Below are positions 7,530 to 44,621 of a DNA stretch of 64,000 bases, piece after piece. The first letter of the stretch is position 1, and each line of letters opens with the position of its first letter. A program made the position numbers and the translations under genes. The notes under the pieces are model-generated. The model searched no databases, was not told the origin of the DNA, and saw nothing but the letters and a program-made list of their open reading frames with translations. This stretch comes from an uncultured Anaerolineaceae bacterium (GTDB lineage: Bacteria > Chloroflexota > Anaerolineae > JAAYZQ01): contig CAYLZO010000002.1 in assembly GCA_964387775.1 (NCBI GenBank), positions 8,003 through 72,002 on the forward strand. The letters run 5' to 3'.

Positions 7530-7626
7530 CGGGAGTGGATGGGAGTCGAACCCACCAGGGCCGCTTCTGCAGCGCCCCTCATACGGTTTTGAAGACCGCG
7601 GAGCCCACCGGGACTCAACCACCCCC
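7530..7626 (-). tRNA. selC: tRNA-Sec (anticodon UCA)
   Basis: Hand-folded from the minus-strand sequence:
- 8-bp acceptor stem GGGGGTGG/CCACTCCC (one G-U pair).
- 6-bp D stem GAGTCC/GGGCTC with the 4-nt loop CGGT.
- Anticodon arm GCGGT-CTTCAAA-ACCGT (anticodon TCA).
- 27-nt variable arm.
- T arm GTGGG-TTCGACT-CCCAT, discriminator G; CCA is not encoded.
The architecture mirrors E. coli selC as recalled. Confidence 0.85.
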
Positions 7627-8907: not shown

Positions 8908-8939
8908 GGTAGACTCCAAACTGAGAATTCAGTTGCCGC

Positions 8940-9536: not shown

Positions 9537-9539
9537 GGG

Positions 9540-16623: not shown

Positions 16624-16633
16624 GTGTGTCCCG

Positions 16634-18844
16634 TTACTCGTCTTTCACTGCTTTCGCCACCGGAAGCGTAAAGCTGAAGGTGCTGCCCTGTCCCGGTGTG
16701 CTTTCGACCCAGATCCGCCCCCCGTGGAGCTCGACCAGGGATCTGGCGATGGATAGGCTCAACCCTCGTCCCGCGTGTTCCTGGACGAGGGGGTGCTCGG
16801 CGCGGAAGAACCGCTCAAAGACCAGGGGCTGGTCTTCGGGCGCAATGCCGATGCCGCTGTCAGACACCGAGACGGTGACCCAGTCGGGCACGCGCCGCTG
16901 CAGCCAGTGCCCGCCCTTGGCCTCCCCTTCGATGGCGATGCGGCCCTTGGGCAGCGTGTAGAGAAAGGCGTTGGTCAGCAGGCTGCTGAGCACCTGGACG
17001 ATCCGCTCTTCGTCCACGTACACGTCGGGCAGGCGCGAGGAGACCTTGACCCCCAGCTTGAGATTCTTGGCCTGCAATCGTTGCTCATAGGAAGACACCA
17101 GGGGCGCCACGATCTGTTTGAGGGCAATCGGCTTTCTCTGCAACTCGGTTTCGCCCGTTTCCAGGCGAGCGATGTCCAGCATGTCCTCCATCAGGGTGAT
17201 GAGGTACTGGGTGCTGTTCTGGATCTTGCGGACGCTTTCGACGTGCATGATGTCCAATTCGCCCATCGCGCCGGACAGCAGCATGTCGCTGTAGCCCTTG
17301 ATGGACGTCAGCGGCGAGCGAAGCTCCTTGGCCACCTTGGTCACGAATCGGCTCTGGGCAGCGTGGAGCTCGCGGGCTTCCCGGTAGAGGCGGGCATTCT
17401 CCAGGGCAATGGTCACCGAGCTGGCCACGTTGCTGAGGCGATCCATGTCGTCCTGGGTAAAGGGGCCATCGACTTTGTTGAGCAATTCGATGACGCCGAT
17501 GCAGCGGTCGCGGAGCAGGAGCGGGGCACAGAGGATGGACCGCGTCGTGAAGCCGGTCGCATCGTCCACGTGGTCGTAAAAGCGCTCGTCGCTGTAGGCG
17601 TCGTTTACGACGGCCGGTTGGCCTGTCAGGGCCACCTGGCCGGCCACCCCCTGTCCCAGCTTGAGGCGGATGCCGCGCAGCGGCTCGGGGTCGCCCAGCC
17701 AGTTGGTGACGAATTCCAATTCCTGCGTCTCTTCGTTCAGCAGCAAGAGCGCCCCGGCCTCGACGTGGAACATGTCCATGATCCGGGCGGCGATCAGGTC
17801 AAAGACCTGTTCCCGGTCCAGGGTCGAAGTCACGGTGCGGGTGATGTCGTAGAGGTAGGTCAGCTCCTCCACCCGGCCGGCCAGGGCTTGATCCGTGGCC
17901 TGGTAGGAGCGGGCGTTTTCGATGGCGATGGCCGCAAAGTCGGCCAGGGCCTGGAGCATGGCTTCGTTGTTGGCGTTGAAGGGCTGGCTGCGCGTCCGGT
18001 TTGCGACGATCAGCACCCCGAAGGGCTCGTCCTTGATCACCAGGGGCACCGAAAGGAGCGACTGTACTTGGTAGTCGGCCGCGATCTCGATGCCCTGGTC
18101 GCTCTCCCCGGCCTGCATCCGCAGGGGGCGCGAGCCGTGCAGCATCTGGCCGGCAAAGGTCTCTTTGAGGGGCAGCCGCTCCAGGCTCGATCTCTGGAGC
18201 TCCAGGTTCTTTTGGGTGCGCAGCTCGAGTTGCTCTGTCTGGGGCGCCAGCAGCCACAGGGCACTTTCCTCGGCCTTGGTGATAAAGACGGCGGCTTCCA
18301 CCACCCGCTCCAGCACCCGGTCCAGGTCGAGCTGGGCGGCGACCGACTTGCTGAGGCCAAAGAGGACGCTCAACTCGCGCACCCGCTGCTCCAGGTCGCT
18401 GCGGGTCCTTTTCAACGCCCGGTTGAGCCGCTCTTTTTCGCGCCGGAGCCGGGCCTGCTCCAGGAGGCGGTCAATGATGGCCTGGGCGGTGTCCGTGTCA
18501 AAGGGCTTGGCCAGATAATCCTTGACGCCCAGCCGGAAAGCGTCCACCACCACCCCTTCCGACCCGTGGGCGGTCATGAGTATGACAGAGCTGGTGATGC
18601 CGCGCTCCTTCATCTCCTTCAAGACGTCGATGCCCGTCATGTCGGGCAGTTGCAGGTCGAGCATGACCAGGTCGGGCTTCTCCGCGACGAGGAGATCGAG
18701 CCCGGCCTGGCCCGTGGCGGCAGTCAGCGTCTCGTAGCCGAACTGGGGCAGCATCTCTTTACCCAGGAAGGTCCGCAGTTCCTTGCTGTCGTCCACGACC
18801 AGGATGCGCCCGGCTGTTTCGACTCTTCCGGCGTCAGGAGCCAT
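16634..18844 (-). CDS. Hybrid sensor histidine kinase: REC - 2xGAF - HisKA - HATPase
   Basis: ILVVDDSKELRTFL ... DLVMLDLQLPDMTG (REC). Two GAF helices (AAIAIENARSY, SVTIALENARLY). HisKA (RSPLTSIKGYSDML). HATPase (GRGLSLSIARSLVELHGGRIWVES). Start placed at ATG 18844 with a GAGGAGG RBS. Confidence 0.85.
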   Translation of the reverse strand: MAPDAGRVETAGRILVVDDSKELRTFLGKEMLPQFGYETLTAATGQAGLDLLVAEKPDLVMLDLQLPDMTGIDVLKEMKERGITSSVILMTAHGSEGVVVDAFRLGVKDYLAKPFDTDTAQAIIDRLLEQARLRREKERLNRALKRTRSDLEQRVRELSVLFGLSKSVAAQLDLDRVLERVVEAAVFITKAEESALWLLAPQTEQLELRTQKNLELQRSSLERLPLKETFAGQMLHGSRPLRMQAGESDQGIEIAADYQVQSLLSVPLVIKDEPFGVLIVANRTRSQPFNANNEAMLQALADFAAIAIENARSYQATDQALAGRVEELTYLYDITRTVTSTLDREQVFDLIAARIMDMFHVEAGALLLLNEETQELEFVTNWLGDPEPLRGIRLKLGQGVAGQVALTGQPAVVNDAYSDERFYDHVDDATGFTTRSILCAPLLLRDRCIGVIELLNKVDGPFTQDDMDRLSNVASSVTIALENARLYREARELHAAQSRFVTKVAKELRSPLTSIKGYSDMLLSGAMGELDIMHVESVRKIQNSTQYLITLMEDMLDIARLETGETELQRKPIALKQIVAPLVSSYEQRLQAKNLKLGVKVSSRLPDVYVDEERIVQVLSSLLTNAFLYTLPKGRIAIEGEAKGGHWLQRRVPDWVTVSVSDSGIGIAPEDQPLVFERFFRAEHPLVQEHAGRGLSLSIARSLVELHGGRIWVESTPGQGSTFSFTLPVAKAVKDE

Positions 18845-21446
18845 CGACGGCCTCCTCTGAGGTGGGCAGCGTGAACCCAAAGATGCTGCCTTCGCCCATT
18901 TTGCTCTTGAGCCAGATCCGCCCGCCGTGCAGCTCGACCAGGGACTTGGTGATAGCCAGGCCCAGGCCGGTGCCCGATTGATCCTGCACCAGCGGGTCCT
19001 CGCTGCGGTAGAATCGCTCGAAAACGTGGTCGAGTTCGTCCGGCTGGATGCCGATGCCGGTGTCCCGGATCGTGGTTTCCACCACGCCGTCCAGCCGGCT
19101 GGCGGCGATGGTGATCTGCCCGCCTACGGGCGTGTAGCGGCAGGCGTTGCTGACCAGGTTGGTCAGGATCTGCACCACGCGCTGGGGATCGCCCAACACC
19201 CGGGCGCTTTCGGGCTCGATCTGGACCGCGACCTCCAGCTCCTTCTCCGAGACCAGGGTGGAGAGCGCCTCCAGGGTGTCGCCGACGGCCTCTTGCAGGT
19301 CGAGGGGCTCGGCCAAGATCGTCAGGCGGCCGTCGTCGATCTTGGAAATGTCCGAGAGGTCGGCCACTAGCCGCATGAGGCGCCGGATGTTCCTCTGGGT
19401 CGTCGTCAAGCACCGGGTCTGCTTCGCGGTCAAGGGGCCGGCCCGCTCGGCCGCCAGGAGGTCGGTATAGCCCCGGATGGCCGTCATAGGGGCACTCAGC
19501 TCGTGATAGATGGCCGAGACGAAATTGCGCAGTTCTTTGGTCCGCTCCCGGACCTTTTCTTCCAGCTCCCGGCTGGCGGCCCGGACCTCTTCGTAGAGGC
19601 GGGCGTTCGCGATGGCGACGGCGGCCTGGTTGGCCAGCGCCCGCAGCAGGTCGAGCTCCTGCCGGGCATAGATGTCGCCCGACCGTTTCGGACCTAGCAG
19701 GTAGACTCCGACCATGCTATTGCCGCTGACGAGGGGCAGTACGACGCGAACGTCGGCTTGTCCCCAGGCTTCCGGCAGTTGGTCGGCCAGGGTCTGGGCT
19801 TTGTCGCCCTCGCCATCCAGCAGCAGGATCTGGCCGGGACGGGCGAGGTTCACGGCCGGGCCGCTGCGGGAAGAAAAAGAGAGGTCCAGGGCCGGTGCTG
19901 GGTCTGCCTGGCTGCCGGCTGTTTGCGCTGGCAGGGGCTCGAAGGTGGTCTCGTCTTTATTGAGCACCAACAGCCACGCCCAAGAGATCGACATCTGTTC
20001 GGGCACGCGTTCGAGGAGGAGCTGGCCCAGGTGGCTGAAGCGCAGGCTGGTGCCCAGCTCCAGGCTCCAGCGGACGATGGCCTGCTGGAAGCTGACCTGC
20101 TGCCGAAAAAAGTGCCGGTCGATGACGGTCTGGATGCGGCGCCGCAGGGGATCGACCAGTATGCCGATGATCAGCGCCGAAACAAAGACCAGGAGTGTGT
20201 AGCCGCTGCTGCCGGTGGCCAGGCCCAGGGCCGTGGAAGCCAGGGTGATGAGCAGCAGGTAGATGGCGGCCAGGGTCCCCGTCAGCAGGCTATAGACCAC
20301 GCTGCGGTTGAGGACCAGGTCGATGTCCAGCAGGCGGTAACGCAGGATGGAAAAGCCGAACGTGACGGGCAGGGGCAGCAGGCCCAAGAGCAAGAGGACG
20401 CTGGTTTCGGCCGTGTGCAGCCTCAGGATCGTCAGGATGATGTCGATGACGTTAACCACGACAGCACAGCTCAGGCCGACCATGATCCACTGGATCTGGC
20501 GTTTCACGACGGGCTGGGCCGTGGTCGTATAGACGTAGGCCAGGCTGGCCAGGCCAAAGGCTGCGCTGATTCCCAGGTAGCCAAAGGCCACGTTGTTTAG
20601 CAGCTCGTACTGCGGACCGGCGTATTTCCCGGTGCCTCTGGCCACCGATCCGGCCAGGGTGTAGATGAGTAGCCCCATCAGGACCAGACCGGGCAGGTGA
20701 AGGAGGGCCGACCAGCGATTCCGCACAAAGGGCCGTTCTTCCGGATAGCTGAGGAAAAAGAGGATGGCCATGCCGGGCGTCATGGTGAGGGCGATGATCT
20801 GGACGTAGATGAGCGGGACGAGTTCTGCCCTGAACAGGGAAAAATACAAGCCCAAGGGAAGCGCGGTCAGGAAAAAGAGGCGCGCCGCTCTGCGTTCGGG
20901 GTGTTGAAAGAGCACCAAGACGCCCATAGCCAGAAAGGCAAAGGTGACGATGTTGCGCAGGAACAGAGGCAGCGCGGGCGGAGGCCCTTCAATCGAGGCC
21001 GGGAGTGTAAGTGTTTCGCCGTCCCGCGCCACGTCGATGGTAATTGTGGCGCCCGGCGCAAACTCCCTGAGGGCTCGGCGGTAGCCCATCACGGTGGAAA
21101 TGGGTTTGCCATGGATGGCCAGCAGTTGATCGCCCGCTTGAAAGCCCAATTCGCCGCCCAGGGGGCCAACCCCGGCAATGACGAGCGTTTCGGGATTCAG
21201 CCGGTCATAAACCTCGCGGCTGACGAATCTTTTGCTCAACTCGCCATAGATTCCCGTCCCCTGCAAGACCAGAAAGAGAGCCGCCAACACCAGGGCGCCG
21301 ACGCGAATTCGTTGCGCCCGCACCAGACCCCTGTCGTGCTGGATCTCGGCCGGGCTGTGCGGCTGCGTCCCGACTTTGGGAGCGCTGATGTCTTGGGTGC
21401 CAGGCGATGCCGACAGTGTCGGGGCCGCCCTCCGTTGGCGATTCAT
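18834..21446 (-). CDS. Membrane sensor histidine kinase: TM - PDZ - multi-TM - GAF - HisKA - HATPase
   Basis: 870 aa. PDZ-like segment GGELGFQAGDQLLAIHGKPIS ... ITIDVARDGETLTL lies between TM1 and a multi-helix hydrophobic block. GAF helix ANQAAVAIANARLY; H-box IYHELSAPMTAIRGY; G-box GTGLGLAITKSLVELHGGRIW. Confidence 0.8.
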   Translation of the reverse strand: MNRQRRAAPTLSASPGTQDISAPKVGTQPHSPAEIQHDRGLVRAQRIRVGALVLAALFLVLQGTGIYGELSKRFVSREVYDRLNPETLVIAGVGPLGGELGFQAGDQLLAIHGKPISTVMGYRRALREFAPGATITIDVARDGETLTLPASIEGPPPALPLFLRNIVTFAFLAMGVLVLFQHPERRAARLFFLTALPLGLYFSLFRAELVPLIYVQIIALTMTPGMAILFFLSYPEERPFVRNRWSALLHLPGLVLMGLLIYTLAGSVARGTGKYAGPQYELLNNVAFGYLGISAAFGLASLAYVYTTTAQPVVKRQIQWIMVGLSCAVVVNVIDIILTILRLHTAETSVLLLLGLLPLPVTFGFSILRYRLLDIDLVLNRSVVYSLLTGTLAAIYLLLITLASTALGLATGSSGYTLLVFVSALIIGILVDPLRRRIQTVIDRHFFRQQVSFQQAIVRWSLELGTSLRFSHLGQLLLERVPEQMSISWAWLLVLNKDETTFEPLPAQTAGSQADPAPALDLSFSSRSGPAVNLARPGQILLLDGEGDKAQTLADQLPEAWGQADVRVVLPLVSGNSMVGVYLLGPKRSGDIYARQELDLLRALANQAAVAIANARLYEEVRAASRELEEKVRERTKELRNFVSAIYHELSAPMTAIRGYTDLLAAERAGPLTAKQTRCLTTTQRNIRRLMRLVADLSDISKIDDGRLTILAEPLDLQEAVGDTLEALSTLVSEKELEVAVQIEPESARVLGDPQRVVQILTNLVSNACRYTPVGGQITIAASRLDGVVETTIRDTGIGIQPDELDHVFERFYRSEDPLVQDQSGTGLGLAITKSLVELHGGRIWLKSKMGEGSIFGFTLPTSEEAVDGS

Positions 21447-21451
21447 CGAGC

Positions 21452-24400
21452 CTACCTCTCCGATATGGCGCTCTTGATCTCGTCAACGAGCCCTTCGATG
21501 GACAGCGGCTTGGTCACGTATTGATCGGCGCCCATGCCCAGGACACGGACGCGATCCCGCTCCTTGTCCACCGGGCTGGCGGTGATGACGATGATGGGGA
21601 TGAAAAGGGTGGCTTCGTCCGATTTCAGGCGGCGGATGACCTCGTACCCATCTATGCCCGGCATCCTCAGGTCGAGCAAGATGAGGTCGGGGTGGCTTTC
21701 GGCCACTTGGTCCAGCGCCTCCCGGCCGTTCTTGGCGGTCCGGATGTGGTAGCCGTGGAAGGACAGCGCCTCTTCGAGGAATCCTCGGATGTCGGGATCG
21801 TCGTCCACGACGAGGAGGTGGCGTGGTGCGTCGTCGTCGTGGGGACGCAGCGCTTGCTCGATGCTTTCTAGCAGCTTTTCCTCGGCGAAAGGCTTGACGA
21901 CGTAATCCACAGCCCCTAACGCATAGCCCTTGTCTTTCTCGGTGAGGACTGCCGAAGCAATCACCACCGGGATCGGGCTGGTCAAGGGATGGGCTTTGAG
22001 CTTTTCCAGCACCACAAAGCCGTCGATGTCGGGCAACATGATGTCCAGGGTGATGAGTTGGGGCTGCTCTTCCCGGGCCAGCCAGATGGCGTCCTCGCCG
22101 CTGCCGGCCAGCAGCACCTGGTAACCCTCGAATTCAAGCTGCCGGCGCAGGAGCAGGGCCAGGTCCCGATCGTCCTCCACGACGAGGATTTTCGGGCGGC
22201 GGCTAATGACCGTCGTCGCCTCGGGGCTGAGCAGGTCGGGGTCCACGTCGGGCGCGTCGGCCGTCGCCAGGGGCAGGGTGAAGCTAAAGGTCGAGCCTAC
22301 GTCCACCTCGCTTTCGACCCAAATCTGGCCGCCCAGCATGTCCACGAACATCTTGACGATGGACAGTCCCAGGCCGGTGCCCCCCGCCTCCTCGACGACC
22401 GGGTCGTCCACCCGGTAGAAGCGGTCAAAGATGCGGGCCGCGTCGTCCTCGGCAATGCCGATGCCGGTGTCGGCGACGTCGATCCGGACGAATCCGTCCA
22501 ATTCTGTAGCCGACACGGTGACCCGCCCGCCTTCGAGCGTGTACTGCCAGGCGTTGGCGATGAGGTTGTTCAGCACCTGCGTGACCCGGTCTTTATCGCC
22601 GCGTACTTCGGGCAGCCCCTTGGGAACGTGGCACTCCAACGTGATGTACTTTTCCCGATACTGCTCCTGGAAGGCGAGTTCGACCTGGGAGATAATCTCT
22701 CTCAGGTCCAGAGCCTCGATGTTCAGCCGGATGCGCCCGGTTTCGATGCGCGAGATGTCGAGGATGTCGTTCACCAGGGCCGTGAGGCGGTCGGCGTTGG
22801 CCTTGATAATCTGCAAAAAGTTCCGCTGGCTGTCGCTGAGCCCCCCGGCCATGCCCAGGAAGAGCAGGTCGGTGTAACCCTTGATGGACGTCATCGGCGT
22901 CCGCAGCTCGTGGGAGACGGTCGAGATGAATTCGTTCTTGAGCCGCTCGATCTCCACCTCGCGGCTGATATCGCGCAGTGCCGCTACCACGCCGGGCGCG
23001 CCGCCGATGGCGGTGATGAGCGGCGCGAGGTTGACGGCCAGGGCCCGCTTGCCCGCTTCGAGGCGGACGGTGCTGGTCTCAAAGAGCCGGTCGCGGCTGG
23101 TCGGATCTTCCAACCGGTGGCGCAGCTCGGAGTAGAGGCCCTGGGCCAGCTCGCGCTGGGCCGGCGTCTCGCCCAGGCCCAACATGTAGCGAAAGTGGTC
23201 GCCTTCCAGCGCCTTGGCCGAGATGCCCAACAGCTCCTCGGCGGCCGGGTTCACCAGGAGCACACGGCCGTTGTGGTCGATCACGAGCACGCCGTCGGCG
23301 ATTGATTCGAGAACCGCCTGGTTCTTGGCGGCTTCCTCCTGCTGCGATTGGAGCATCGAGCCAAGCTGGTCGGCCTGGTCGGTGATGAAGGCATAGAGGT
23401 CCGAGTTGTTGACCGCCATCGCGATCTGAGAGGCCGCGGCGGTGACCAGTTTGAGGTGCTCCTCGGTAAAGAAGCCGATCGACGGGTGGCCCAGCGTCAA
23501 CACGCCGAGGATGTCGCCACCGCCCAGCGACAGTGGGGCCGCCAGGGCCGAGTGGATCTCGAGTTCCCGGCCCGGGATCTTGAGCCAGCGCGACTCCTCG
23601 GCAATGTTCGGCACCAGGACCGGCTCTCGGTGTTCGACCGTCCAGCCGGCCAGGCCCACGCCCGCTTTCAGCGGCGTGCGCTCGCCCACGGCAATCTCGA
23701 TCACTTCGGGCGGCATCTCGTCCTTGTTCCAGTGGACGGCGACCTCGACGGGGTTCAACGTGGCCCGCAGCTCGAGAAAGCGCGACTCCTGGTCGAGCAG
23801 CATGATGGTGCCGTGGGTCACGCCCAGGGCATCGGCAAAGAGTTGCAGCGCCCGCTCCAGGACCCGCTCCAGCTCCAGGGTGGTGCCCAGCTCGCTGGTG
23901 ATGCGGTACAGGGTCTCGACCCGGTCGCGCTCCAGCGTCAACTCTTCGAGGGCCTGCTCCAGGTCGCGGGTGCGCGCCTCGACGCGGTCCTCCAGCTCGT
24001 TGCTAAAGTCCACGATCTGCCGATAGAGCTGGGCGTTGCGCACGGCTGCCGCCGTCCCCGCGGCCAGCGTAGAAAAGAGGGCCAGGTCCTGTTCATCGTA
24101 GACCCTGTCTCGCGTGTAGTCCTGGATGGCCATCACGCCCACGATCCGGTCGGCAGCGACCAGCGGCACGCCCATCCACGATCTAGCCCGCTCGCCGACC
24201 TGGCCGATGCCATACTTTTCGTGGAAGGCCACGACCTCGTCGAGGCTGCGGAGCAAGATCGGCTCCCGGGTGCGGAGGATGTAGCCGGTAAGTCCCGCCT
24301 TGACGCTGTACCGGGCGACGGGCTCTCGCTCGCCATGTTCCTGGGCAAAGGCCAGGGTCCACTCCTCCTGGCCTTCCTGGTAGGTTGCGATGTAAAAGTT

Positions 24401-27400
24401 GGTGGTGTCAAAAATGCGGTTGACCTGTTGGTGGATCGTTTCCAGCAGGTCCTTCAACTCCAGGCTGGAGCTGATGGTCTGGCCCATCTCGTTGAGCACC
24501 GAAAGCTCGTTGATGCGCCGCTGGCGTTCCTCAAAGAGGGAGACGTTCTGGAAGGCGATGGCCGCCTGCCCGGCGACGGTGGCCAGCAGATTCAGGTGGC
24601 CCTCGTCAAAGGCATTTTCCTGGTCAAAACTCTGCACGGCGATGGCGCCGATGGCCCGGTCTTCGGCGATCATGGGCACGCCCAACCAGGATTTGGCCGG
24701 GTCTCGCTCCAGGGTCAGATCGTGCTCGCGCAGGAATTCGGTGGTGCCGTGGGTCAGCAGGATCGGCTCGCCGGTGCTGATGAGGTAGCTGGTGAGCCCC
24801 TGGCCCAGCTCGAGCTGGACCTTGGGCTGGCGCTGGCTGTTTTCCACCAGATATTCGACGTCGATGGTCTGGGCCTCGGCATCGTAGAGCGCGATGTGAA
24901 AGTTCCGGGTGTCCAGGAGTTTGCCGACCTGGGTGTAGATCATCTCGGCCAGTTGCTCGGCGTCGAGCGCGCTGCTGATGGCCCGGCCGATCTCGTTGAT
25001 CGTGGCCAGCTCGGCGACGCGGCGCTGGGTCTCTTCAAAGAGGGAGGCGTTTTGGATGGCGACGGCCAACTGGTCGGCTGCGATCTCGAGGGAGGCGGCG
25101 TCTTCTTCTGTAAAGGCCCCGGCGTGATCCGCTTCGGCGTGTAGAACCCCCGCCACCCTCTCTGCAATGCGGATGGGGACCGAGAGGCTGGCCGGCGCAT
25201 CCCAGGCCCCGGTGCGATAGTATCGCTCGTCAGTGCGTGTATCGTTTACGAGCACGGTCTCGCCCTCGGCGGCCGCTGTGCCGATCAGGCCCTGGCCCGG
25301 CGCCTGCCGATAGTTGGACGGGATGACGTCCCAGAAGCTCTCGTTGGCCGCGGCTACGGCCAGCTCGCCGGACTTTTCGTCCACCAGCAGGACGGCCACG
25401 CGAAAGTAGCCCAGGTTTTGATGCAGGGCGTTGACCGTCGTCTCTAGCATCTCTTGCAGTTCGAGTTGGGCAGCGGCCCGGCGGCCGATGACGTTCAGCA
25501 GCGAAAGCTGCACGGCCGCCTGCTGCGTGCCGGCAAAGAGGCGGGCGCTTTCGAGGACCACTGCGGCCTGGTCGGCCAGGGTGCTGAGCAAGACCTCGTC
25601 CGATTGGGAGAAGGCGTGGGTCTCGGTGCTCCCCGCGGTCAGTACGCCAATGACCTGCCGGCCGGCCATCATCGGCACGCAGATCATCGAACCGATGGGG
25701 CTGGGACCCTCGACGAAGCGGGGTTCACGGCTGGCGTCGGGGACCAGCAGGGGGCTGCCCGTCGCCGCCACGTGGCCGACCAGCCCCTCGCCGAGGCCGA
25801 AGCGGAGGTCGGCCAGCTCGTCGGGGCTGGGACCCTGGCTGGCGACCGCCACAAAGAGTCCGTGTACCGGGTCGGGCTGAAAGACGGCGCTCAGGTCGCA
25901 TTGCAGCATCTCGCTCACGGCCCGAACCGCCGTGTTGCGTACGTGGTCGGGGTCCAGCACCTGGGTCAGCGAGCGCCCGACTTCGTTGATGCGGGCCAGG
26001 TTGTCGGCCCGGGTTTGGGCGTCGCTGTAGAGTTGGGTGTTCTCGGCAGCGATGGCGGCCTGGTTGGCAAAGATGGCCAGGGCTTCGAGGGTCTGGCGGG
26101 AGGGCCGCCGGTCGTCCCGGGGATCGTCCACCGAGATGATGCCCAGCAGCCGCCCGCCACTGCCCCGCAGCGGGGCGAGGAGCATGTCGTTGGCGTGCCA
26201 CTGCCCCTCCTGCCAGTCGCCCCGGCCGACCATCGGGGCGTGGGTGTGGAGTTTGGCCGCCCAATCCTCCCGTTTTTGAAAGGGGAAGAAGTAGCAGAGA
26301 CCCTGGCGGTACTCCTCGCGCAAGATTTTTTCGTAGCGCGCTACGGGCTGGCGGACCTTTTGCAGTTGCTCAAAGGCGCGAAGTGTCAGACCGGCGGCGG
26401 CCATGCGTCGCAGGGTGGGCCGGGTGCTCTGCCAGTTCTCGACTACGCTGATGAGCACCACGTTAAAGCCGACCGTCTCCTGGATGGCGTAGGCGATCTC
26501 TTCCAGCGCCTCTCCCAGCGGCACGTCGGCGCGGAGCTTCTGGCTGATCTCCAGCAGGCGGCCCATCTGCTCGGTGCGATGGCGCAGGCGGGTGTTGGCC
26601 CGGATCTGGTCCTCGTAGCGCAGGGCATTGCCGATGGCGATGGCCGCTTGCTCGGCCAGCGATTGGACAAAGGTCAGGTCGTCCTGGTCAAAGGCCTCGA
26701 CGTCGGTGTGGCGCAGGTTGATGAGGCCCACGACGACCTGTTCGTAGAAAATGGGCACGACGAGGGCCGATCGGGTATCCTGCCGCACGCAGACGCTGCA
26801 CGTCTCCCGGCGGGCATCGTCGACGATGCGGGCCTCGCCGCTGCGGCTGACCTGGAGGGTCAGGCTGTCGCCGCTGGCGTCGAGCAGCAGCGCTTCGATG
26901 TCGGCCTGCTCTTCGGGCGAGTAGCCCTGGCTGGTTCGCAGCGAGAGTTCCCCCGTCTCCCTGTCGGTGAGCATCAGGTTGCCGTGGGTGGCGCCCGTCG
27001 TCTGCACCGCCGACTCGAGGACGACCTGGAGGATGTGGTCGAGGGCCAGCGTGGCGTTGAGCTCCTCGATGGTGTGTTGCAGGGCGGTCAATTCCTCCAG
27101 GCGGGCGCGCAGACGCTCGTCAGTCTGTTCGTAGAGCCGGGCGTTCTCGATGGCCACGGCGGCCTGGTTGGCCAGGGCTTGGCCCAGGCGGACGTCGGCC
27201 TCGGAAAACTCGCGGACGTGGCGGCTCTCGTACAGCTCCAAGAGCCCGACGACGTTGTCGCGGGCGATGAGGGGCATCATCATCAGCGATTTTTGCTGCA
27301 TCTCTTTGAGCAGCGCCACCTCAGCCTCGTCGGCGTCTGGATCGTCAACCTGAATCACGACCGGCTGGCGGCGTTTCAGAGCTTCGGCTGTGGCGGGATA

Positions 27401-30370
27401 GTCGTCCAGGGGGTAGGCCACGCCGACGTCTGACGGTGGCAGGCCAGGGATGACGTCCTCGTGCACCAGGGTCGTGACCAGGCCTCGCTCCGGGTCCCAA
27501 TCGGAGATGCTGCACGTCGAGACGTTCAGGGCGCGGGCCATCTGCCGGGCCACGGTCTGGAGGACCTCGTCGAGGGCCAGGCTCGAAGAAATGGCCGCGC
27601 TCGTTTCGAACAGGATGCCCAGCTCGCGGAGCCGTTCTTGCTGGGCTTCAAAGAGGCGGGCGTTGTCGACCACGGTGCCGGCCTGCCAGGCGATGGCATT
27701 GGCGACCTGGAGTTCTTCCTGGCTAAATTCGCGCTTCTCCGTGCTCCACACGAGATAGACGCCGCCGATGACTTGGTCGCGGGCCACCATCGGGGCAAAG
27801 AGGGTGGTCTCGTTGGGAAAGGCTTCGAGGGTCGCCGGGTCCAGCCGCGGATCGTGGGTTGGGTCCAGGCTATAGACGGCCTGGTGGGTCTGCCACGCTT
27901 CTTCGATGAAGGGATGGCCCTCGATGGGGACCCGAAAATCGCGATAGAGTTCCAATTTGTCCTTGGGAATGTGGTAGCCGGCGACGGCCCGCAGGCGGGT
28001 GCCCGTTTCGTCGGGCAAATAGACGCCGGCCATGTCGGCGTCTAGGGCGCGGCACATCTGCCGGGCGACCTGGCGGACCGTCTCGGTCAGGTCGAGGGTC
28101 GAGCCGATGGCCTCGCTGACCCGGAGCAGGAGCTGGGTCTGCTCGAATTGCTGCTCGGTCTCTTGGTAGAGACGGGCGTTCTGGATAGCGACGGCCGCCT
28201 GGTCGGCGATGATCTGTAGGATCGCGAGGTCGTCGGCGTTGTACGCGTCCAACTCGTCGCTGGCAATTTCCAGCGTGCCCACCAGCTCGTCACCGGTCTT
28301 GAGGGGCAGGCCCAGATAGGAGCGGAGCGGCGTGGCTTCTGCCTCCATCTTGGGGCGCACGTCGTGGCGGACGGGGATGTCGGCGATCAAGAGGTGTTCC
28401 TGGTGGCGGGCGATCCAGCCGGTGTAGCCCTCGTCGAGGTGGTAGATGCCGCCGCTGGCCGCCGTGTAGCGCGGGTCGCCGGCGCTGGCGTGGGTGATCA
28501 TCACCTGGTCCGTCTCGTCCCAGAGGCAGATCTCGGCGATGTAATAGTCCACCAGGTCTTTGACGCGGGCCAGGATGAGGTTGAGGGTCCGCTCCAGGTC
28601 GAGGCTGGTGCGGATTTCGCGGCCGATCTCGCCGATGGTGCGGAGCATCCGAACGCGCTGCCGCTCCTCTTCAAAGATGCGGGCGTTCTCCATGGCGATG
28701 GCGGCCTGGTTGGCAAAGGTCTTGAGCGTGTCGAGCTCGACAGAGCTGAACGAGTGCGGCTCGGCGAAATAGACGGTCAGCGTGCCGAGGTTGGCCTCGC
28801 GGCCGCGCAAGGGAAGATCGGCCAGGGCACGGAATCCCTCGCGCCGGGCCAGAGGTAGAAAGTCGGCCAGTTCGGGCTCGTCCTCGATGTCGGACACGAC
28901 CAAGGGTTCCTTGGCCAGTGTGGCCCTGGCCCGGCTGTCGGGCGTGACCTCGACGTCCTGGGCTCCGGCGACGTATTCGTCGCTGAGGCCGTGGCTCACT
29001 CTCAGGCTGACCCGGTCCTCCTCCAGGACAAAGATGGCGGCCTTTTGGCAATTGGATACTTCGATGACCGAGTCGAGGATCGTGGTGAGCACTTGCTCGG
29101 AGTCGAGCACCGAGCTGACCGTGGCCGAGACCTCGTTCAGGGTGGCCAGGTTGGCGGCGCGGCGTTGCTCTTCGCGAAAGAGGCGGGCGTTCTCCAACGC
29201 AATGCCGACGTGGTCGGCCAGGTGCTCCATGAAGTGGAGATCGTCCGGTGTGAAGGCGGCCGGCCGGTCACTCTCCAGGTTGAGCACGCCGATGACCTGT
29301 TCGGTGCCCTCGCCTGTTCCGCGTCTCTTGATCGGCACCGCGACCTCGGAGCGGGTGGTCTCGCTGACGGCTTCATAGTCCGGATCGGTCCGCACGTCGT
29401 CGATGCGGGTCGGCTCGCCGCTGCGAACGACCCGGCCGACGATGCCCCGATCCACCGGCCACGCCCGGGTCCCGGTGACGGCTTTCTGGTCGGCGCCTGA
29501 CGGGCCGGAGAAACGGGCCTCCAGCCGCTCTCCGTCGTCGCTGAGCGTGCCGATCATGCCGCTGCTGGCGTTGCAGGCTTCGATGGCCCGTTTCAAAACC
29601 AGGTCAATGATCCGGTCGTAGTCGAGGTTGGTGCCCAGTTCGTGGTCGATCTCTTCGATGGTCGCCAGTTCCCGGTGGCGCCGGGTCAGGACTCGCTCGG
29701 TTTCCGCCAGTTGGGCTTCGGCCTGGGCCAGTTGGCGCCGGGTCTCGGCGTGGGCGCGGGCGTTTTCGAGGGCGACGGCGACCTGGGCCGCAAAGGTGGA
29801 GAGGAGCTCGAGGTCCTGGCTGCTGAACGGGGCGTCGTCGGCGCCGCTCCAGACTTCCAGGGCGCCAAGGGGATGGTCGGGGCCAAGGAGCGGCACGCAG
29901 AGCAGGGACCGAACCGGGAAGCCGGGGTCGGCGTCGGGGGCGTCGGCCCATTTTTCGTCCTGGGGCAGATCGTGGACGAGTAGGCCCCGTCCCGTTTTGA
30001 GGACGGTTCCGGCGATGCCCTCGCCGGCGACAGGCCGCCGGGCGAGGAATACGCCGGCGACGGGGCCCTCGGAGGCTCGAAATACCAACTGGCCGCTCTC
30101 GCCGTCCACCCAGGCCAGCGCGGCGGCTGTCGCCTCCAGGATCTCGACGGCCTGGGTCGCCGCCTGGCCGGCGACGACGTCGAATTCCAGGGAAGCCGAG
30201 ATCGCCTGCCCGGCCTCGTAGGCCTTTATCAGGCGCTGGAGGCGGTCGAACGCACCGTTCTCGCAGCCAGAGCCGTCGGACGGCATCGTTTGCTGGATTT
30301 CCTCCAGTGCTCGCGCCAGGCGGCTTTCCCTATCCGTTTTTAGGCTGGACATTTGTACACTCATGGCCAA
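21452..30370 (-). CDS. Giant cytoplasmic hybrid histidine kinase: 13xGAF - PAS - HisKA - HATPase - REC - REC (2972 aa)
   Basis: Single uninterrupted ORF. Thirteen GAF terminal-helix motifs were counted (see finding). Also PAS (LESIADGVLVIDHNGRVLLVNPAAEELLG), H-box (FISTVSHELRTPMTSIKGY) and G-box (GTGLGLSIVKMFVDMLGGQIWVES). Two receivers are present (KILVVEDDRDLALLL..LDIMLPDIDG and HLLVVDDDPDIRGFL..LDLRMPGIDG). The start is uncertain: TTG 30370 or ATG 30364. Confidence 0.85.
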   Translation of the reverse strand: MAMSVQMSSLKTDRESRLARALEEIQQTMPSDGSGCENGAFDRLQRLIKAYEAGQAISASLEFDVVAGQAATQAVEILEATAAALAWVDGESGQLVFRASEGPVAGVFLARRPVAGEGIAGTVLKTGRGLLVHDLPQDEKWADAPDADPGFPVRSLLCVPLLGPDHPLGALEVWSGADDAPFSSQDLELLSTFAAQVAVALENARAHAETRRQLAQAEAQLAETERVLTRRHRELATIEEIDHELGTNLDYDRIIDLVLKRAIEACNASSGMIGTLSDDGERLEARFSGPSGADQKAVTGTRAWPVDRGIVGRVVRSGEPTRIDDVRTDPDYEAVSETTRSEVAVPIKRRGTGEGTEQVIGVLNLESDRPAAFTPDDLHFMEHLADHVGIALENARLFREEQRRAANLATLNEVSATVSSVLDSEQVLTTILDSVIEVSNCQKAAIFVLEEDRVSLRVSHGLSDEYVAGAQDVEVTPDSRARATLAKEPLVVSDIEDEPELADFLPLARREGFRALADLPLRGREANLGTLTVYFAEPHSFSSVELDTLKTFANQAAIAMENARIFEEERQRVRMLRTIGEIGREIRTSLDLERTLNLILARVKDLVDYYIAEICLWDETDQVMITHASAGDPRYTAASGGIYHLDEGYTGWIARHQEHLLIADIPVRHDVRPKMEAEATPLRSYLGLPLKTGDELVGTLEIASDELDAYNADDLAILQIIADQAAVAIQNARLYQETEQQFEQTQLLLRVSEAIGSTLDLTETVRQVARQMCRALDADMAGVYLPDETGTRLRAVAGYHIPKDKLELYRDFRVPIEGHPFIEEAWQTHQAVYSLDPTHDPRLDPATLEAFPNETTLFAPMVARDQVIGGVYLVWSTEKREFSQEELQVANAIAWQAGTVVDNARLFEAQQERLRELGILFETSAAISSSLALDEVLQTVARQMARALNVSTCSISDWDPERGLVTTLVHEDVIPGLPPSDVGVAYPLDDYPATAEALKRRQPVVIQVDDPDADEAEVALLKEMQQKSLMMMPLIARDNVVGLLELYESRHVREFSEADVRLGQALANQAAVAIENARLYEQTDERLRARLEELTALQHTIEELNATLALDHILQVVLESAVQTTGATHGNLMLTDRETGELSLRTSQGYSPEEQADIEALLLDASGDSLTLQVSRSGEARIVDDARRETCSVCVRQDTRSALVVPIFYEQVVVGLINLRHTDVEAFDQDDLTFVQSLAEQAAIAIGNALRYEDQIRANTRLRHRTEQMGRLLEISQKLRADVPLGEALEEIAYAIQETVGFNVVLISVVENWQSTRPTLRRMAAAGLTLRAFEQLQKVRQPVARYEKILREEYRQGLCYFFPFQKREDWAAKLHTHAPMVGRGDWQEGQWHANDMLLAPLRGSGGRLLGIISVDDPRDDRRPSRQTLEALAIFANQAAIAAENTQLYSDAQTRADNLARINEVGRSLTQVLDPDHVRNTAVRAVSEMLQCDLSAVFQPDPVHGLFVAVASQGPSPDELADLRFGLGEGLVGHVAATGSPLLVPDASREPRFVEGPSPIGSMICVPMMAGRQVIGVLTAGSTETHAFSQSDEVLLSTLADQAAVVLESARLFAGTQQAAVQLSLLNVIGRRAAAQLELQEMLETTVNALHQNLGYFRVAVLLVDEKSGELAVAAANESFWDVIPSNYRQAPGQGLIGTAAAEGETVLVNDTRTDERYYRTGAWDAPASLSVPIRIAERVAGVLHAEADHAGAFTEEDAASLEIAADQLAVAIQNASLFEETQRRVAELATINEIGRAISSALDAEQLAEMIYTQVGKLLDTRNFHIALYDAEAQTIDVEYLVENSQRQPKVQLELGQGLTSYLISTGEPILLTHGTTEFLREHDLTLERDPAKSWLGVPMIAEDRAIGAIAVQSFDQENAFDEGHLNLLATVAGQAAIAFQNVSLFEERQRRINELSVLNEMGQTISSSLELKDLLETIHQQVNRIFDTTNFYIATYQEGQEEWTLAFAQEHGEREPVARYSVKAGLTGYILRTREPILLRSLDEVVAFHEKYGIGQVGERARSWMGVPLVAADRIVGVMAIQDYTRDRVYDEQDLALFSTLAAGTAAAVRNAQLYRQIVDFSNELEDRVEARTRDLEQALEELTLERDRVETLYRITSELGTTLELERVLERALQLFADALGVTHGTIMLLDQESRFLELRATLNPVEVAVHWNKDEMPPEVIEIAVGERTPLKAGVGLAGWTVEHREPVLVPNIAEESRWLKIPGRELEIHSALAAPLSLGGGDILGVLTLGHPSIGFFTEEHLKLVTAAASQIAMAVNNSDLYAFITDQADQLGSMLQSQQEEAAKNQAVLESIADGVLVIDHNGRVLLVNPAAEELLGISAKALEGDHFRYMLGLGETPAQRELAQGLYSELRHRLEDPTSRDRLFETSTVRLEAGKRALAVNLAPLITAIGGAPGVVAALRDISREVEIERLKNEFISTVSHELRTPMTSIKGYTDLLFLGMAGGLSDSQRNFLQIIKANADRLTALVNDILDISRIETGRIRLNIEALDLREIISQVELAFQEQYREKYITLECHVPKGLPEVRGDKDRVTQVLNNLIANAWQYTLEGGRVTVSATELDGFVRIDVADTGIGIAEDDAARIFDRFYRVDDPVVEEAGGTGLGLSIVKMFVDMLGGQIWVESEVDVGSTFSFTLPLATADAPDVDPDLLSPEATTVISRRPKILVVEDDRDLALLLRRQLEFEGYQVLLAGSGEDAIWLAREEQPQLITLDIMLPDIDGFVVLEKLKAHPLTSPIPVVIASAVLTEKDKGYALGAVDYVVKPFAEEKLLESIEQALRPHDDDAPRHLLVVDDDPDIRGFLEEALSFHGYHIRTAKNGREALDQVAESHPDLILLDLRMPGIDGYEVIRRLKSDEATLFIPIIVITASPVDKERDRVRVLGMGADQYVTKPLSIEGLVDEIKSAISER

Positions 30371-30442: not shown

Positions 30443-31339
30443 TTACAATCCCTGCTGTGCCCGCCGGCGGGCATCGGCGGCGACCTCGGTGATCTCGCGG
30501 ATGTCGGCAAAGGGCGCTGTGTCGTATCGGATGAGACCGACGGCCAGCGTCATGAGCGGTTTCTCTTCGACGTTTCCGTCGCTGTCCACCACCTCGATGT
30601 GGCCGCGCTCCCGGTCTCTGAAATTGTAAAAGGTCATCACTTCTTCGTTGAAACGCTGCACGAGGCGTGCTTTCATCTCGGACGCGTGCTGGGGCAGCGT
30701 GATGATCATAAAGTCGTCGCCGCCGATGTGCCCGATAAAGTCCCCGCCCGTGCCGATCTCGTCTACGACTTCGGTCAGGAGCATGGCCGTGAAGCGCAAC
30801 ACGTCGTCACCGGCGACGAAACCGTACACGTCGTTAAAATCTTCGATGTTTTTGATGCCGATGTAGAGCACGGCCCAGTCGTCCCGGCGGATGATCTCGC
30901 GTAACTGCTCCTCGACGAGTTTGCTGCTGGGCAGGCCGGTCACGGGGCTGGTGAGGCTGAGCCAGCCGGCCCGCTGGATCGAGTTCTGCACCCGCAGGAG
31001 CAGGAGCTGGAGGTCGAAGGGCTTGGTGACGTAATCGTCAGCTCCGAGCTCCAGCCCAGCGATCTGATCGCTCCGTTCGTCCTTTTGCGTCAAAAAGATG
31101 ATGGGGATGTGGCTGGTGCGCAGGTTGCCCCTCAGCCGGCGGCAGACTTCGTAGCCGTTGATGTCGGGCAACATGATGTCCAGGATTACCAGGTTGGGCA
31201 GTTTGCGCCGGCACATCTCCAGGCCCTCTTGGCCCCGGGGAGCGACCATCGTTTCGTAGCCTTGGGAATCGAAGTAGATGCGGAGCATGTTCGAGATGTC
31301 AAAGTCGTCTTCGACGATGAGTATCCGTCCTTTGCTCAT
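30443..31339 (-). CDS. Response regulator: REC + GGDEF-family domain with a GGDDF motif
   Basis: RILIVEDDFDISNML ... LVILDIMLPDINGYE (REC). The C-terminal cyclase-like domain has YGFVAGDDVLRF and IGHIGGDDFMII. No RxxD I-site is visible upstream of the motif. Confidence 0.8.
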   Translation of the reverse strand: MSKGRILIVEDDFDISNMLRIYFDSQGYETMVAPRGQEGLEMCRRKLPNLVILDIMLPDINGYEVCRRLRGNLRTSHIPIIFLTQKDERSDQIAGLELGADDYVTKPFDLQLLLLRVQNSIQRAGWLSLTSPVTGLPSSKLVEEQLREIIRRDDWAVLYIGIKNIEDFNDVYGFVAGDDVLRFTAMLLTEVVDEIGTGGDFIGHIGGDDFMIITLPQHASEMKARLVQRFNEEVMTFYNFRDRERGHIEVVDSDGNVEEKPLMTLAVGLIRYDTAPFADIREITEVAADARRRAQQGL

Positions 31340-35317: not shown

Positions 35318-35689
35318 TCAGATCAATCGGCTCAAATCCTCGGCGGCGCGGCGCATGTCCAAAAAGACCAAGCCCAGCTTGGCATCTTTGTGAGCCAGTA
35401 CGGTGAGTACGGCGTCTTCTCCGACTGAAGTCAGGATCACGTAGCCGTTGGCGCCCCGGATGTAGACCTGGTCCAGGATCCCCCGCCCCAATTCGCCCGC
35501 AATTCGCTCGCCCAAGCTGAGCATGGCCGCACTCATGGCCGAAACCCGGTCTTCTTCCACGTCCGTGGGGAGTGCGGAGGCGATGATGAGCCCGTCGACG
35601 CTCACCACGGCGGAGGCCTCAATATCGGGCGTGCTGATTTGTAGATCTTTGAGGCGAGCTACCATCTGTTCCGTGCGTGATCGTGTCAT
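35318..35689 (-). CDS. Roadblock/LC7 (MglB-like) domain protein
   Basis: 123 aa. Motifs IEASAVVSVDGLIIASALP ... MSAAMLSLGERIA ... GYVILTSVGEDAVLTVL are typical of Roadblock/LC7. Confidence 0.8.
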   Translation of the reverse strand: MTRSRTEQMVARLKDLQISTPDIEASAVVSVDGLIIASALPTDVEEDRVSAMSAAMLSLGERIAGELGRGILDQVYIRGANGYVILTSVGEDAVLTVLAHKDAKLGLVFLDMRRAAEDLSRLI

Positions 35690-35735: not shown

Positions 35736-36266
35736 CTATTCGGGGGTCTTGTCCAGTATGGTATAGAGCAGCTCCAATAGAACTCGTTTTACACTTTCTT
35801 TTTCCGTTGCTACACAAGGCAGCAATTTGATGTCCGGCCGGACCTTGAGGGCGATGCGCAGGTCTTCAGGGGGCCAGGCGTCCTCCATGTCCTGCTTGTT
35901 GGCGGCGACGACGTAGGGGGTATGGGCGTAATTGCGAAAGATGTCCAGGATGCGGCGCGCTTCGCGAAAGGTCTCAGGGCGGACACTGTCCACCAAAACG
36001 ACAAAGCCGAGCATGCCTTCGGAGAGGATCTCCCACATAAAATCGAAGCGTTTCTGGCCGGGCGTGCCAAATAGGTAGAGGACAAGGTCTTCGTCCACTG
36101 CGATGCGCCCAAAGTCCATGGCGACGGTGGTTTCCCGTTTGATCCGGGAGGTGGCGTCCGTGATCTTGCGCTCGGTGGATACGACGTCAATCTCGCTAAT
36201 GGTGCGAATGAATTCGGTCTTGCCAGCGCTAAAGGGGCCGGTAATAACCATCTTTACTGTTTGCAT
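35736..36266 (-). CDS. MglA/CvnD-like small GTPase (ATP/GTP-binding protein)
   Basis: 176 aa. G1 is GPFSAGKT, G3 is LFGTPGQ (lacks the canonical Asp, as in MglA-type GTPases), and G4 is ANKQD. Confidence 0.8.
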   Translation of the reverse strand: MQTVKMVITGPFSAGKTEFIRTISEIDVVSTERKITDATSRIKRETTVAMDFGRIAVDEDLVLYLFGTPGQKRFDFMWEILSEGMLGFVVLVDSVRPETFREARRILDIFRNYAHTPYVVAANKQDMEDAWPPEDLRIALKVRPDIKLLPCVATEKESVKRVLLELLYTILDKTPE

Positions 36267-36369: not shown

Positions 36370-37197
36370 CTAAAGCCGCTTGATCCGGTCGATCAGCTTG
36401 TGGATGACGGATCGTTTGACCGCCGGCGGCCGCGAGATGACCTTTTCCATCGCGGCGGTTGGGGCTCTGCGCGGTTTTGCGCCTTCCGGTTCTATGATCT
36501 CAACCAGGCCGGCCTGCAAGAGCCCATAGACGATCTTGCGGATCTGGAAATCGTCCATCCCGATGCGCTGGCCGATCCGCTTGATGGAGTTTTTGGGATT
36601 GATGTAGGAGATAACGCGCCACTCGTCTACGCTCAGGTTGATGTTACGCAACTGGGCCTGGGGGCGGTCGGTGAATTTGAGCGCCATCTCCAGATCGGGC
36701 AGTTCGTCCTGCAGCCGCTCCCATTCCTTGACCCGGCGGCTTCCTTCCAGGATGATGTTCTCCAGGTCTATGGAGACGGTGATGGCGTCGTTGGCCGGCA
36801 ATTGGTTGGGCTCAAAGTGGAACAAGCCCTCGGTCCACGTAAAGAGGCTGTAGACCACGTCCAGAAAGTCGCTGCGGACACTGTTCAGGATGTCCGACTG
36901 GCTGACGTGACCAGCGCTGATGAGGAGCATTCCCAGCTCCTTGTCGGTCTTGACGCCGGCTCGCTCCCGGATCACCCTGGCCTGCTCGCGGGTCAGCTTT
37001 CCGCCCCGGGCCAATACGCTGGCCAAGTGCGAGTCTCTGCCGCTTGCCGTGGCGTAGACCAACTTGCCCTCGCGAAAAAAGAGGGTTGTCACGCCCGGCT
37101 GGACCTGTGTCGTCAGGGCACCGGTCTTGCGTGCCAGGTGGATCAGATTCAAGAGCTGTGTCGTGCTAAAGTCTCTGAGGTTCCCTTTCAGCGCCAT
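36370..37197 (-). CDS. DUF4388 (PATAN-like) domain protein with a C-terminal winged-helix-like segment
   Basis: 275 aa. The N-terminus LKGNLRDFSTTQLLNLIHLARKTGALT is the typical DUF4388 opening. The C-terminus LSVDEWRVISYINPKNSIKRIGQRIGMDDFQIRKIVYGLLQAGLVEI looks like a wHTH (DUF742/CvnC-like). Confidence 0.7.
   Translation of the reverse strand: MALKGNLRDFSTTQLLNLIHLARKTGALTTQVQPGVTTLFFREGKLVYATASGRDSHLASVLARGGKLTREQARVIRERAGVKTDKELGMLLISAGHVSQSDILNSVRSDFLDVVYSLFTWTEGLFHFEPNQLPANDAITVSIDLENIILEGSRRVKEWERLQDELPDLEMALKFTDRPQAQLRNINLSVDEWRVISYINPKNSIKRIGQRIGMDDFQIRKIVYGLLQAGLVEIIEPEGAKPRRAPTAAMEKVISRPPAVKRSVIHKLIDRIKRL

Positions 37198-42135: not shown

Positions 42136-44621
<2,486 letters not shown>

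Follow-up and report, generated by a model that had tools for sequence, protein, structure and literature searches.

A 64,000-nucleotide (nt) stretch of the genome of an uncultured Anaerolineaceae bacterium (contig CAYLZO010000002.1, positions 8,003 to 72,002; hereafter the window) encodes, on its minus strand, a giant protein in which 13 GAF domains precede a PAS domain, a HisKA domain, a HATPase_c domain and two receiver (REC) domains. Judged by its sequence, this protein is a cytoplasmic hybrid sensor histidine kinase of the Anaerolineae-type Chloroflexota. It is likely, in our view, that it acts as a dimer built around a helical spine and integrates inputs from some of its GAF units, and that the GAF array evolves by insertion and deletion of whole modules in register.

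The gene and its product

The open reading frame (ORF; 21452-30370, minus strand) comprises 2972 codons if counted from a TTG, with the stop codon at 21452-21454; its translation is free of internal stops, in agreement with the initial annotation, which had described an uninterrupted 8.9-kb ORF. ATG codons are found at positions 3 and 7 of the frame (30362-30364 and 30350-30352), the former being preceded by GGTGA, and an identical protein of 2966 amino acids deposited at NCBI (P0001) has a start matching the codon-7 ATG; the true start is probably one of these two ATG codons and not the TTG. That the frame might be a pseudogene or the product of a gene fusion was also considered, and rejected.

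Delineation with Pfam confirmed the architecture proposed earlier (GAF array, PAS, HisKA, HATPase and two receivers, in this order), the GAF models scoring far above cut-off: PF01590 (GAF) matched 13 stretches (E = 5.5e-201, 658 bits versus a cut-off of 22.4) and PF13185 (GAF_2) matched 12 (E = 2e-218, 715 bits). No convincing membrane helix was found in the kinase, the highest Kyte-Doolittle mean over 19 residues being 1.66 and lying inside PAS/GAF β-strand segments; the earlier statement that the protein has no hydrophobic segment was therefore correct, these maxima being β-strand cores. When compared with the named kinases of NCBIfam (PnpS, PhoR, WalK, BarA, TorS and others), the protein stayed below every equivalog cut-off; the best match was PnpS (313.8 bits versus a cut-off of 400), and the matches cover only the PAS-kinase-receiver part.

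Every GAF unit closes with a conserved helix motif (...QAAxAxENARLF). The 13 copies of this terminal-helix/linker motif quoted in the initial annotation were each found exactly once in the protein, at residues 194, 385, 553, 722, 894, 1067, 1239, 1435, 1599, 1765, 1933, 2103 and 2313, i.e., at a spacing of 164-210 residues. Counted from the N-terminus, unit 1 (29750-30253; residues 40-207), which ends in AAQVAVALENARAH, is followed by unit 2 (29177-29749; 208-398), unit 3 (28673-29176; 399-566), unit 4 (28166-28672; 567-735), unit 5 (27650-28165; 736-907), unit 6 (27131-27649; 908-1080), unit 7 (26615-27130; 1081-1252), unit 8 (26027-26614; 1253-1448), which contains an internal insertion, unit 9 (25535-26026; 1449-1612), unit 10 (25037-25534; 1613-1778), unit 11 (24533-25036; 1779-1946), unit 12 (24023-24532; 1947-2116) and unit 13 (23393-24022; 2117-2326), which ends in ASQIAMAVNNSDLY; all are on the minus strand. 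Pairwise identity among the 13 units is 13-37% with a mean of 24%, and the closest paralogues are units 11 and 12 (37%); the units are, as had been claimed, diverged domains and not recent duplicates.

The array leads into a PAS domain (22955-23311, minus strand; residues 2354-2472, PAS_4), which is followed by the HisKA domain, i.e., the dimerisation and histidine phosphotransfer (DHp) domain (22736-22939, minus strand; residues 2478-2545, 74.5 bits), and by the HATPase_c domain (22265-22600, minus strand; residues 2591-2702, 103.7 bits). The H-box (SHELRTP, histidine at 2487), the N box (NLIANA, 2602), the G1 box (DTGIG, 2634) and the G2 box (GGTGLGL, 2663) are all intact, the DHp and the catalytic domain both showing the motifs of a class I (HisKA-type) kinase. 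Two Response_reg stretches (173 bits) complete the protein: receiver 1 (21848-22192, minus strand; residues about 2727-2841) with a putative phospho-acceptor aspartate in DIMLPD at 2776, and receiver 2 (21476-21814, minus strand; residues 2853-2965) with its counterpart in DLRMPG at 2900; the DD pairs upstream of the phospho-acceptor motifs are visible in the translation.

A large family with a variable array

A protein search returned 1399 matches at E ≤ 1e-50, of which the best 120 were analysed. They are 1680-4407 amino acids long and have essentially the same domain set; the named ones are annotated as "GAF domain-containing protein" from Anaerolineae, Chloroflexia, Chloroflexales or Kouleothrix. 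When their GAF units were counted with a hidden Markov model made from the 13 units of the window's kinase, 6-22 units were found per protein (best 120 of 1399), the upper end being represented by P0094, in which Pfam recognises 22 GAF_2 stretches together with HisKA, HATPase_c and two receivers. When 1.84 billion representative proteins were searched exhaustively with a profile, the picture was similar: the top 150 matches listed carry 7-21 GAF stretches each. The rarity of a 13-GAF array had thus been overstated: 13 is mid-range in a populous family of 6-22 units, and the identical protein was already public. The literature searched contained no description of GAF arrays longer than seven, of how such arrays evolve or of Chloroflexota multi-GAF kinases; this class of giants looks undescribed there, yet it is not rare in sequence databases. 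A scan of genome contigs was of no use for finding orthologues, being dominated by a generic receiver pattern (MPGIDGYE) that picked up unrelated hybrid kinases of many phyla at 26-39% identity.

The units of the 40 closest homologues were mapped onto those of the window's kinase, to which they correspond 1:1 and strictly collinearly, typically at 55-79% identity. Across the orthologues, identity is 50-73% for the GAF units, 71% for PAS, 82% for DHp, 68% for the catalytic and ATP-binding domain and 63-72% for the receivers, and each orthologous group of units keeps a distinct conserved signature. Identity comparable to that of the catalytic domains, together with signatures of their own, indicates that purifying selection acts on the GAF units, which are more than filler.

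The unit complement, in turn, varies widely. Comparison of 38 full-length orthologues, suggested by the initial annotation as a check on copy number, revealed 29 different architectures, and the uninterrupted order 1 to 13 of the window's kinase is unique among the 38 compared. All 40 orthologues have units 7, 8 and 13; units 9 and 10 occur in 38, unit 6 in 27, unit 5 in 16 and unit 3, the one most often missing, in nine. In 17 of the 40, units 1 and 2 are separated by an additional unit "b" that the window's kinase lacks, and a unit of the 11/12 type occurs one to four times per orthologue. By Fitch parsimony on a neighbour-joining tree, this variation requires at least 51 gains or losses. 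The frequent loss of units 1-6 indicates that individual distal units are dispensable.

These differences are clean. The large gaps in pairwise alignments add up exactly to one or several unit lengths (168, 172, 173, 341, 345, 509, 682, 330 and 170 residues), and for most of them both breakpoints lie at equal offset, within about 10 residues of the asparagine of the terminal motif. The most telling case is a pair of near-identical alleles from different metagenomes, P0007 and P0017 (loci L002, 2109-11396, and L006, 3001-11784), the genes of which agree in 97.0% of 8784 aligned bases and have a single large difference, a 504-bp indel that coincides exactly with unit 3. Its junction falls in a 33-nt stretch in which linkers 2 and 3 match at 32 of 33 positions; these two linkers share an exact run of 24 nt, the longest among adjacent linker pairs of that gene. 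The indel is a deletion, since unit 3 has orthologues in the window's kinase and in several other branches, and each of the two alleles was assembled on 3-5 separate contigs from different data sets; samples containing them are ERZ505355, 3300010289 and ERZ27296003. Read from these sequences, whole modules are lost from the array, and less often added to it, in register and with the helical phase at the junctions preserved; the mechanism we infer is recombination between short linker segments of nearly the same DNA sequence. The proposal that the linkers could drive gain and loss of domains is in this way supported by whole-unit indels in register, by breakpoints inside the motif and by the 504-bp allele pair.

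The DNA repeat on which that proposal had been founded is more modest than was thought. A linker patch does recur in the array, every 492-588 nt, and in this sense the claimed period of about 500 bp exists; however, the patch is only 46-82 nt long at 60-80% identity and there is no tandem array, as Tandem Repeats Finder detected no periodic array between 21 and 31 kb. Exact repeats in the array DNA reach at most 24 nt (linkers 3 and 8), as compared to a maximum of 12-17 nt in 30 codon shuffles.

Junctions of quantised length

The length of a junction was taken as the distance from the motif asparagine to a conserved leucine in the first helix of the next unit. Measured in this way, 1326 junctions in the 120 homologues fall into a few classes with hardly any intermediates: 28 residues (809 junctions), 32 (192), 35 (184), 46 (20) and 53 (97). 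In the orthologues it is the downstream unit that sets the length regardless of the unit preceding it, a junction of 32 residues leading into unit 2, 32 into unit 7, 35 into unit 8 and 53 into unit 13; the one before unit 7 has 32 residues in 39 of 40 orthologues (the exception, P0025, has 39) and the one before unit 8 always has 35. Only four deviating junctions were encountered: +7 in P0025 and P0030, -1 in P0015 (unit 4 to unit 6, 27 instead of 28) and +14 in the window's kinase itself. The last is junction 1→2 (29648-29755, minus strand), which has 46 residues versus 32 in the orthologues and holds a heptad-like repeat (QLAQAEA/QLAETER); this points to a lengthening of the linker helix by two heptads (+14) that is peculiar to this lineage and by which the heptad phase was kept.

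Hydrophobic positions within the junctions are spaced by 3-4 residues, with a heptad pattern in the long ones. The longest, junction 12→13 (53 residues), contains an S-helix-like segment, NELEDRVEARTRDLEQALEEL (23939-24001, minus strand). The junction reads ELEDRVEARTRDLEQALEEL; compared to the family consensus RVEERTRDL it retains R-T of the "ERT" signature, while E is replaced by A (VEARTRDL), and its hydrophobic spacing is 3-4-7-7-3-3-4, the resemblance to an S-helix being judged from this pattern.

Fold and structure models

A profile of the 13 units matched, among proteins of known structure, the GAF domains of CyaB2 (1ykd, E = 5e-27) and of the phosphodiesterase (PDE) PDE5 (3lfv, E = 2e-25), as well as those of PtsP and DevS. 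The terminal motif aligns to the "..NAQLF/Y" helix of CyaB2 and PDE5 and is, for this reason, a general trait of this branch of GAF domains, the kinase being no special case.

Two segments were modelled with AlphaFold2, both as monomers. For units 9-11, an alignment of 13 orthologous segments yielded a model with a mean predicted local distance difference test score (pLDDT) of 86.6. It shows three GAF folds with the secondary structure expected of an antiparallel β-sheet backed by N- and C-terminal helices, and unbroken helices of 45-46 residues (155-200 and 321-365) run across both junctions, the terminal motif continuing directly into the first helix of the following unit. Foldseek retrieved the tandem GAF domains of PDE5A as the best match of this model (target-normalised TM-score 0.62-0.64, E about 1e-15); further matches were CyaB2, PDE2/6 and the GAF-PHY modules of phytochromes. 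The second model, which extends from junction 12→13 through GAF13 and PAS to the DHp domain, has a mean pLDDT of 64 and, owing to this low confidence, was used for secondary structure only; it contains helices at 4-74, 214-265, 380-419 and 424-454, that is, a 71-residue helix into GAF13, one of 52 residues from GAF13 to PAS and one of 40 residues from PAS to DHp. Taken together, quantised junctions, heptad spacing and the models argue for rigid, phase-preserving helical connections and a coiled-coil spine. The long helical spine envisaged in the initial annotation gains support from the same observations, as single helices span every junction examined in the models.

Signatures of known GAF ligands were sought in the units. 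A regular-expression scan, which is a simple pattern test, found the NKFDE motif of cyclic nucleotide-binding GAF domains in none of the 13 units; likewise, the Cys-His motif of bilin binding is missing, as the dipeptide "CH" does not occur in any of the 13 and units 10-13 are devoid of cysteine.

A signalling model and its alternatives

The kinase would be a parallel homodimer, in which the junction helices make up one long coiled-coil spine of tens of nanometres. Binding of ligands or partners at some of the GAF modules would change the packing or rotation of the helices, and this change would be relayed from module to module and, via the S-helix-like segment before GAF13, GAF13 itself and the PAS domain, reach the DHp bundle, where it would set autophosphorylation of the kinase. 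The phosphoryl group could then pass to the kinase's own receivers and further to response regulators encoded in the conserved gene cluster described below, candidate acceptors being the REC-GGDEF-like protein, the REC-GAF-GAF kinase and the stand-alone receiver. The parallel orientation of the dimer we infer from S-helix, DHp and PDE/phytochrome precedents.

Several points weigh against this reading. The signalling steps are drawn wholly by analogy with solved tandem-GAF, phytochrome and S-helix proteins, and one of the precedents points elsewhere: the tandem GAF domains of bacterial CyaB2 dimerise in antiparallel fashion (PMC1592074), so that a parallel spine is not guaranteed. The models are monomers predicted from shallow alignments of 13-14 sequences, and the second falls below a pLDDT of 50 in parts of its long helices. 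No histidine phosphotransfer (HPt) family is among the Pfam matches of the kinase or of the 33 other ORFs of the window that were scanned; an HPt protein may be encoded elsewhere in the genome. Since the N-terminal units are often lost, they would seem individually dispensable, and some of them may carry no signal. The at least 51 steps of gain or loss obtained by Fitch parsimony are an approximate figure, which depends on the neighbour-joining tree of the invariant parts used.

How many of the units sense anything is the question on which alternative readings differ. In the most demanding one, which takes up the initial annotation's suggestion of many distinct ligand or partner specificities, every GAF unit binds a ligand or partner of its own and the output is computed from some 13 signals. 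This would agree with the distinct conserved signature of each orthologous unit, with a conservation (50-73%) close to that of the catalytic domains and with the low identity of the units to each other. However, units 1-6 have been lost repeatedly and independently in close relatives, which makes many of the inputs expendable; furthermore, both the NKFDE and the Cys-His bilin motif are missing from all 13 units, and neither sequence profiles nor fold matches allow a ligand to be assigned. GAF domains without a known ligand, which serve mainly dimerisation, do exist. We therefore hold thirteen separate inputs to be unlikely. The opposite view, in which only a few units (e.g., the universal units 7-13) sense, while the others make up a stiff, dimeric spacer or scaffold by which length is set or GAF-containing neighbours might be docked, is doubtful but deserves more credit. 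It would agree with the near-universal presence of units 7-10 and 13 next to highly variable units 3, 5, 6 and b, with the strictly conserved junction geometry and with the eight further GAF units, alike in their terminal motif, that four syntenic neighbour genes encode (PDZ-GAF and REC-GAF-GAF kinases, GAF-STAS proteins); on the other hand, the variable units are conserved at 50-73% wherever they are retained, which is beyond the needs of a simple spacer.

A different objection is that the ORF, or the number of its units, is an artefact of repeat collapse or expansion during assembly. The gene does contain a periodic motif, and most relatives stem from metagenome assemblies; yet the units are only 13-37% identical, Tandem Repeats Finder saw no array, and the longest exact repeat (24 nt) is shorter than the k-mers named in the titles of relatives' contigs (e.g., k141). 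In addition, the identical protein is independently present at NCBI, dozens of orthologues from independent assemblies are collinear with it at the level of single units, and the P0007 and P0017 alleles were each recovered on 3-5 contigs. On these grounds an artefact is rejected, its probability being practically negligible. A more far-reaching idea starts from the indels: the GAF array might be a re-configurable sensor, in which linker-driven deletion and duplication are so frequent that strains, or even cells, within one population differ in the number and set of their in-register modules; the signalling input would be re-wired in a contingency-like manner, possibly within a larger GAF complex that includes the neighbouring GAF kinases and GAF-STAS proteins. 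This is a long shot.

Comparison with known systems

The closest parallels in sequence profile and fold are the tandem GAF-A/GAF-B domains of PDE5, PDE2, PDE6 and CyaB2, which share with the kinase units the GAF fold, the terminal helix motif (..NAQLY/F) and a single long connecting helix. In contrast to the kinase, they have two GAF domains instead of 13, bind cAMP or cGMP via the NKFDE motif, which the kinase lacks, and have a phosphodiesterase or cyclase instead of a histidine kinase as output. Phytochromes and the multi-GAF cyanobacteriochrome kinases are, like the protein described here, soluble and carry GAF-family modules on a helical spine running into the DHp domain, and the phytochrome fold matches were the GAF-PHY modules of Cph1, Cph2 and bacteriophytochromes. 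For a single protein of the cyanobacteriochrome type, as many as seven GAF domains have been described (PMC5812497, PMC6696110); the kinase has nearly twice as many, is without the Cys-His motif for bilins and belongs to Chloroflexota and not to cyanobacteria.

S-helices, as defined by Anantharaman, Balaji and Aravind in 2006 (PMC1592074), comprise about five heptads with an "ERT" signature and connect two signalling domains. Junction 12→13 resembles them in its heptad pattern, in the R-T of "ERT" and in its placement between signalling domains; it differs in that it is only one of 12 inter-GAF junctions, the other eleven lacking ERT, and in that it lies between two GAF domains and not directly before the kinase. 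The GAF-GAF kinases DevS/DosS (profile matches in the PDB at E about 1e-19) are likewise cytoplasmic with N-terminal GAF sensing, but they have two GAF domains, one of which binds haem, and no receivers, whereas the kinase has 13 GAF domains and two receivers.

The true kin are the giants from Anaerolineae and Chloroflexia metagenomes (P0002-P0120, P0127-P0268), which have the same succession of GAF array, PAS, HisKA and HATPase_c, with or without two receivers; the closest 40 are 41-67% identical, 6-22 units are found, and the gene neighbourhood is shared in P0007, P0010 and P0017. The window's kinase differs from them only in its exact unit complement and in the junction 1→2 that is 14 residues longer; it is an ordinary member of a large, already deposited but unstudied Chloroflexota family of multi-GAF sensor kinases. 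The protein by itself is of less value than the natural deletion series and the rule of quantised junctions: dozens of orthologues differ by clean, in-register removals of single GAF units, which permits asking which modules sense, how far along the spine a signal reaches and how the helical phase controls output. How signals pass through chains of sensor modules via coiled-coil linkers into a kinase is an open question that this family could serve. The series also preserves a nucleotide-level record of how the module count of a repeated-domain sensor changes, probably by recombination inside a conserved linker patch of about 33 nt.

Gene neighbourhood

The kinase gene is part of a long run of minus-strand genes, the order of which is kept in the contigs of P0007, P0010 and P0017. 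On the 5′ side of the kinase this run encodes, towards it, a DUF4388/PatA_N protein, a Ras-like GTPase, a Roadblock/LC7 protein, a hydrolase, a V4R protein, a hexapeptide transferase, a shikimate-dehydrogenase-like protein and a REC-GGDEF protein; after it come a PDZ-GAF kinase, a REC-GAF-GAF kinase, a 4xGAF-STAS protein, four STAS proteins, an RsbT/RsbW-like kinase, a PP2C phosphatase, a receiver, a hydrolase and a Wzy_C protein. The conservation of this run makes the kinase a component of a multi-kinase, partner-switching signalling island.

The gene upstream of the kinase (30443-31339, minus strand; synteny conserved) encodes the receiver with a GGDEF-like domain, in which GGDDF replaces GG(D/E)EF and only positions 5-107 of the 161 of the GGDEF profile are matched; the domain is probably degenerate and non-catalytic. 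Downstream, the PDZ-GAF-HisKA-HATPase_c kinase (18834-21446, minus strand) starts 5 nt past the stop of the giant kinase and is followed by the REC-GAF-GAF-HisKA-HATPase_c kinase (16634-18880, minus strand), both in conserved synteny, and then by the gene for four GAF units and a STAS domain (13993-16623, minus strand). The four STAS proteins (12848-13996; 11760-12851; 10799-11767, with one GAF; 9934-10686), the RsbT/RsbW-like HATPase_c_2 kinase (9540-9947), the SpoIIE/PP2C phosphatase (8940-9536) and the stand-alone receiver (8527-8919), all on the minus strand, come after it. Four of these neighbours (within 13993-21446 and 10799-11767) contain the eight GAF units mentioned above, which end in ..QAAxAIENARL[FY], so that 21 GAF units are found in five genes; they are not recent copies, as full-length matches are only 24-32% identical to units of the giant kinase.

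The region from 8527 to 16623 (minus strand), directly downstream of the three kinases, resembles a stressosome or partner-switching module, in which the GAF-STAS fusions would correspond to RsbR-like sensors. On the other side of the cluster, the Ras-like small GTPase (35736-36266), the Roadblock/LC7 protein (35318-35689) and the DUF4388/PatA_N protein (36370-37197), all encoded on the minus strand, bear a likeness to an MglA/MglB-type pair; GTPase, Roadblock and DUF4388 genes are also located upstream of the kinase cluster in the P0010 locus (L004).

Other features of the window

Between the hydrolase and Wzy_C genes, both ARAGORN (anticodon TCA) and Rfam (RF01852, 69.6 bits) recognise a gene for a selenocysteine tRNA (7530-7626, minus strand). 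A locus for the biosynthesis of polysaccharides occupies the plus strand from 42142 to 62375; it encodes GT2 and GT4 glycosyltransferases, a flippase (43089-44621), an epimerase and four ORFs of the sulfotransferase family (44636-45691, 45698-46576, 47559-48572 and 48592-49488); the GC content falls to 0.56-0.59 at 42-48 kb. At 57903-62375 (plus strand) a protein of 1490 amino acids is encoded, in which Wzy_C is joined to many TPR repeats and, at the C-terminus, to a cyclophilin domain.

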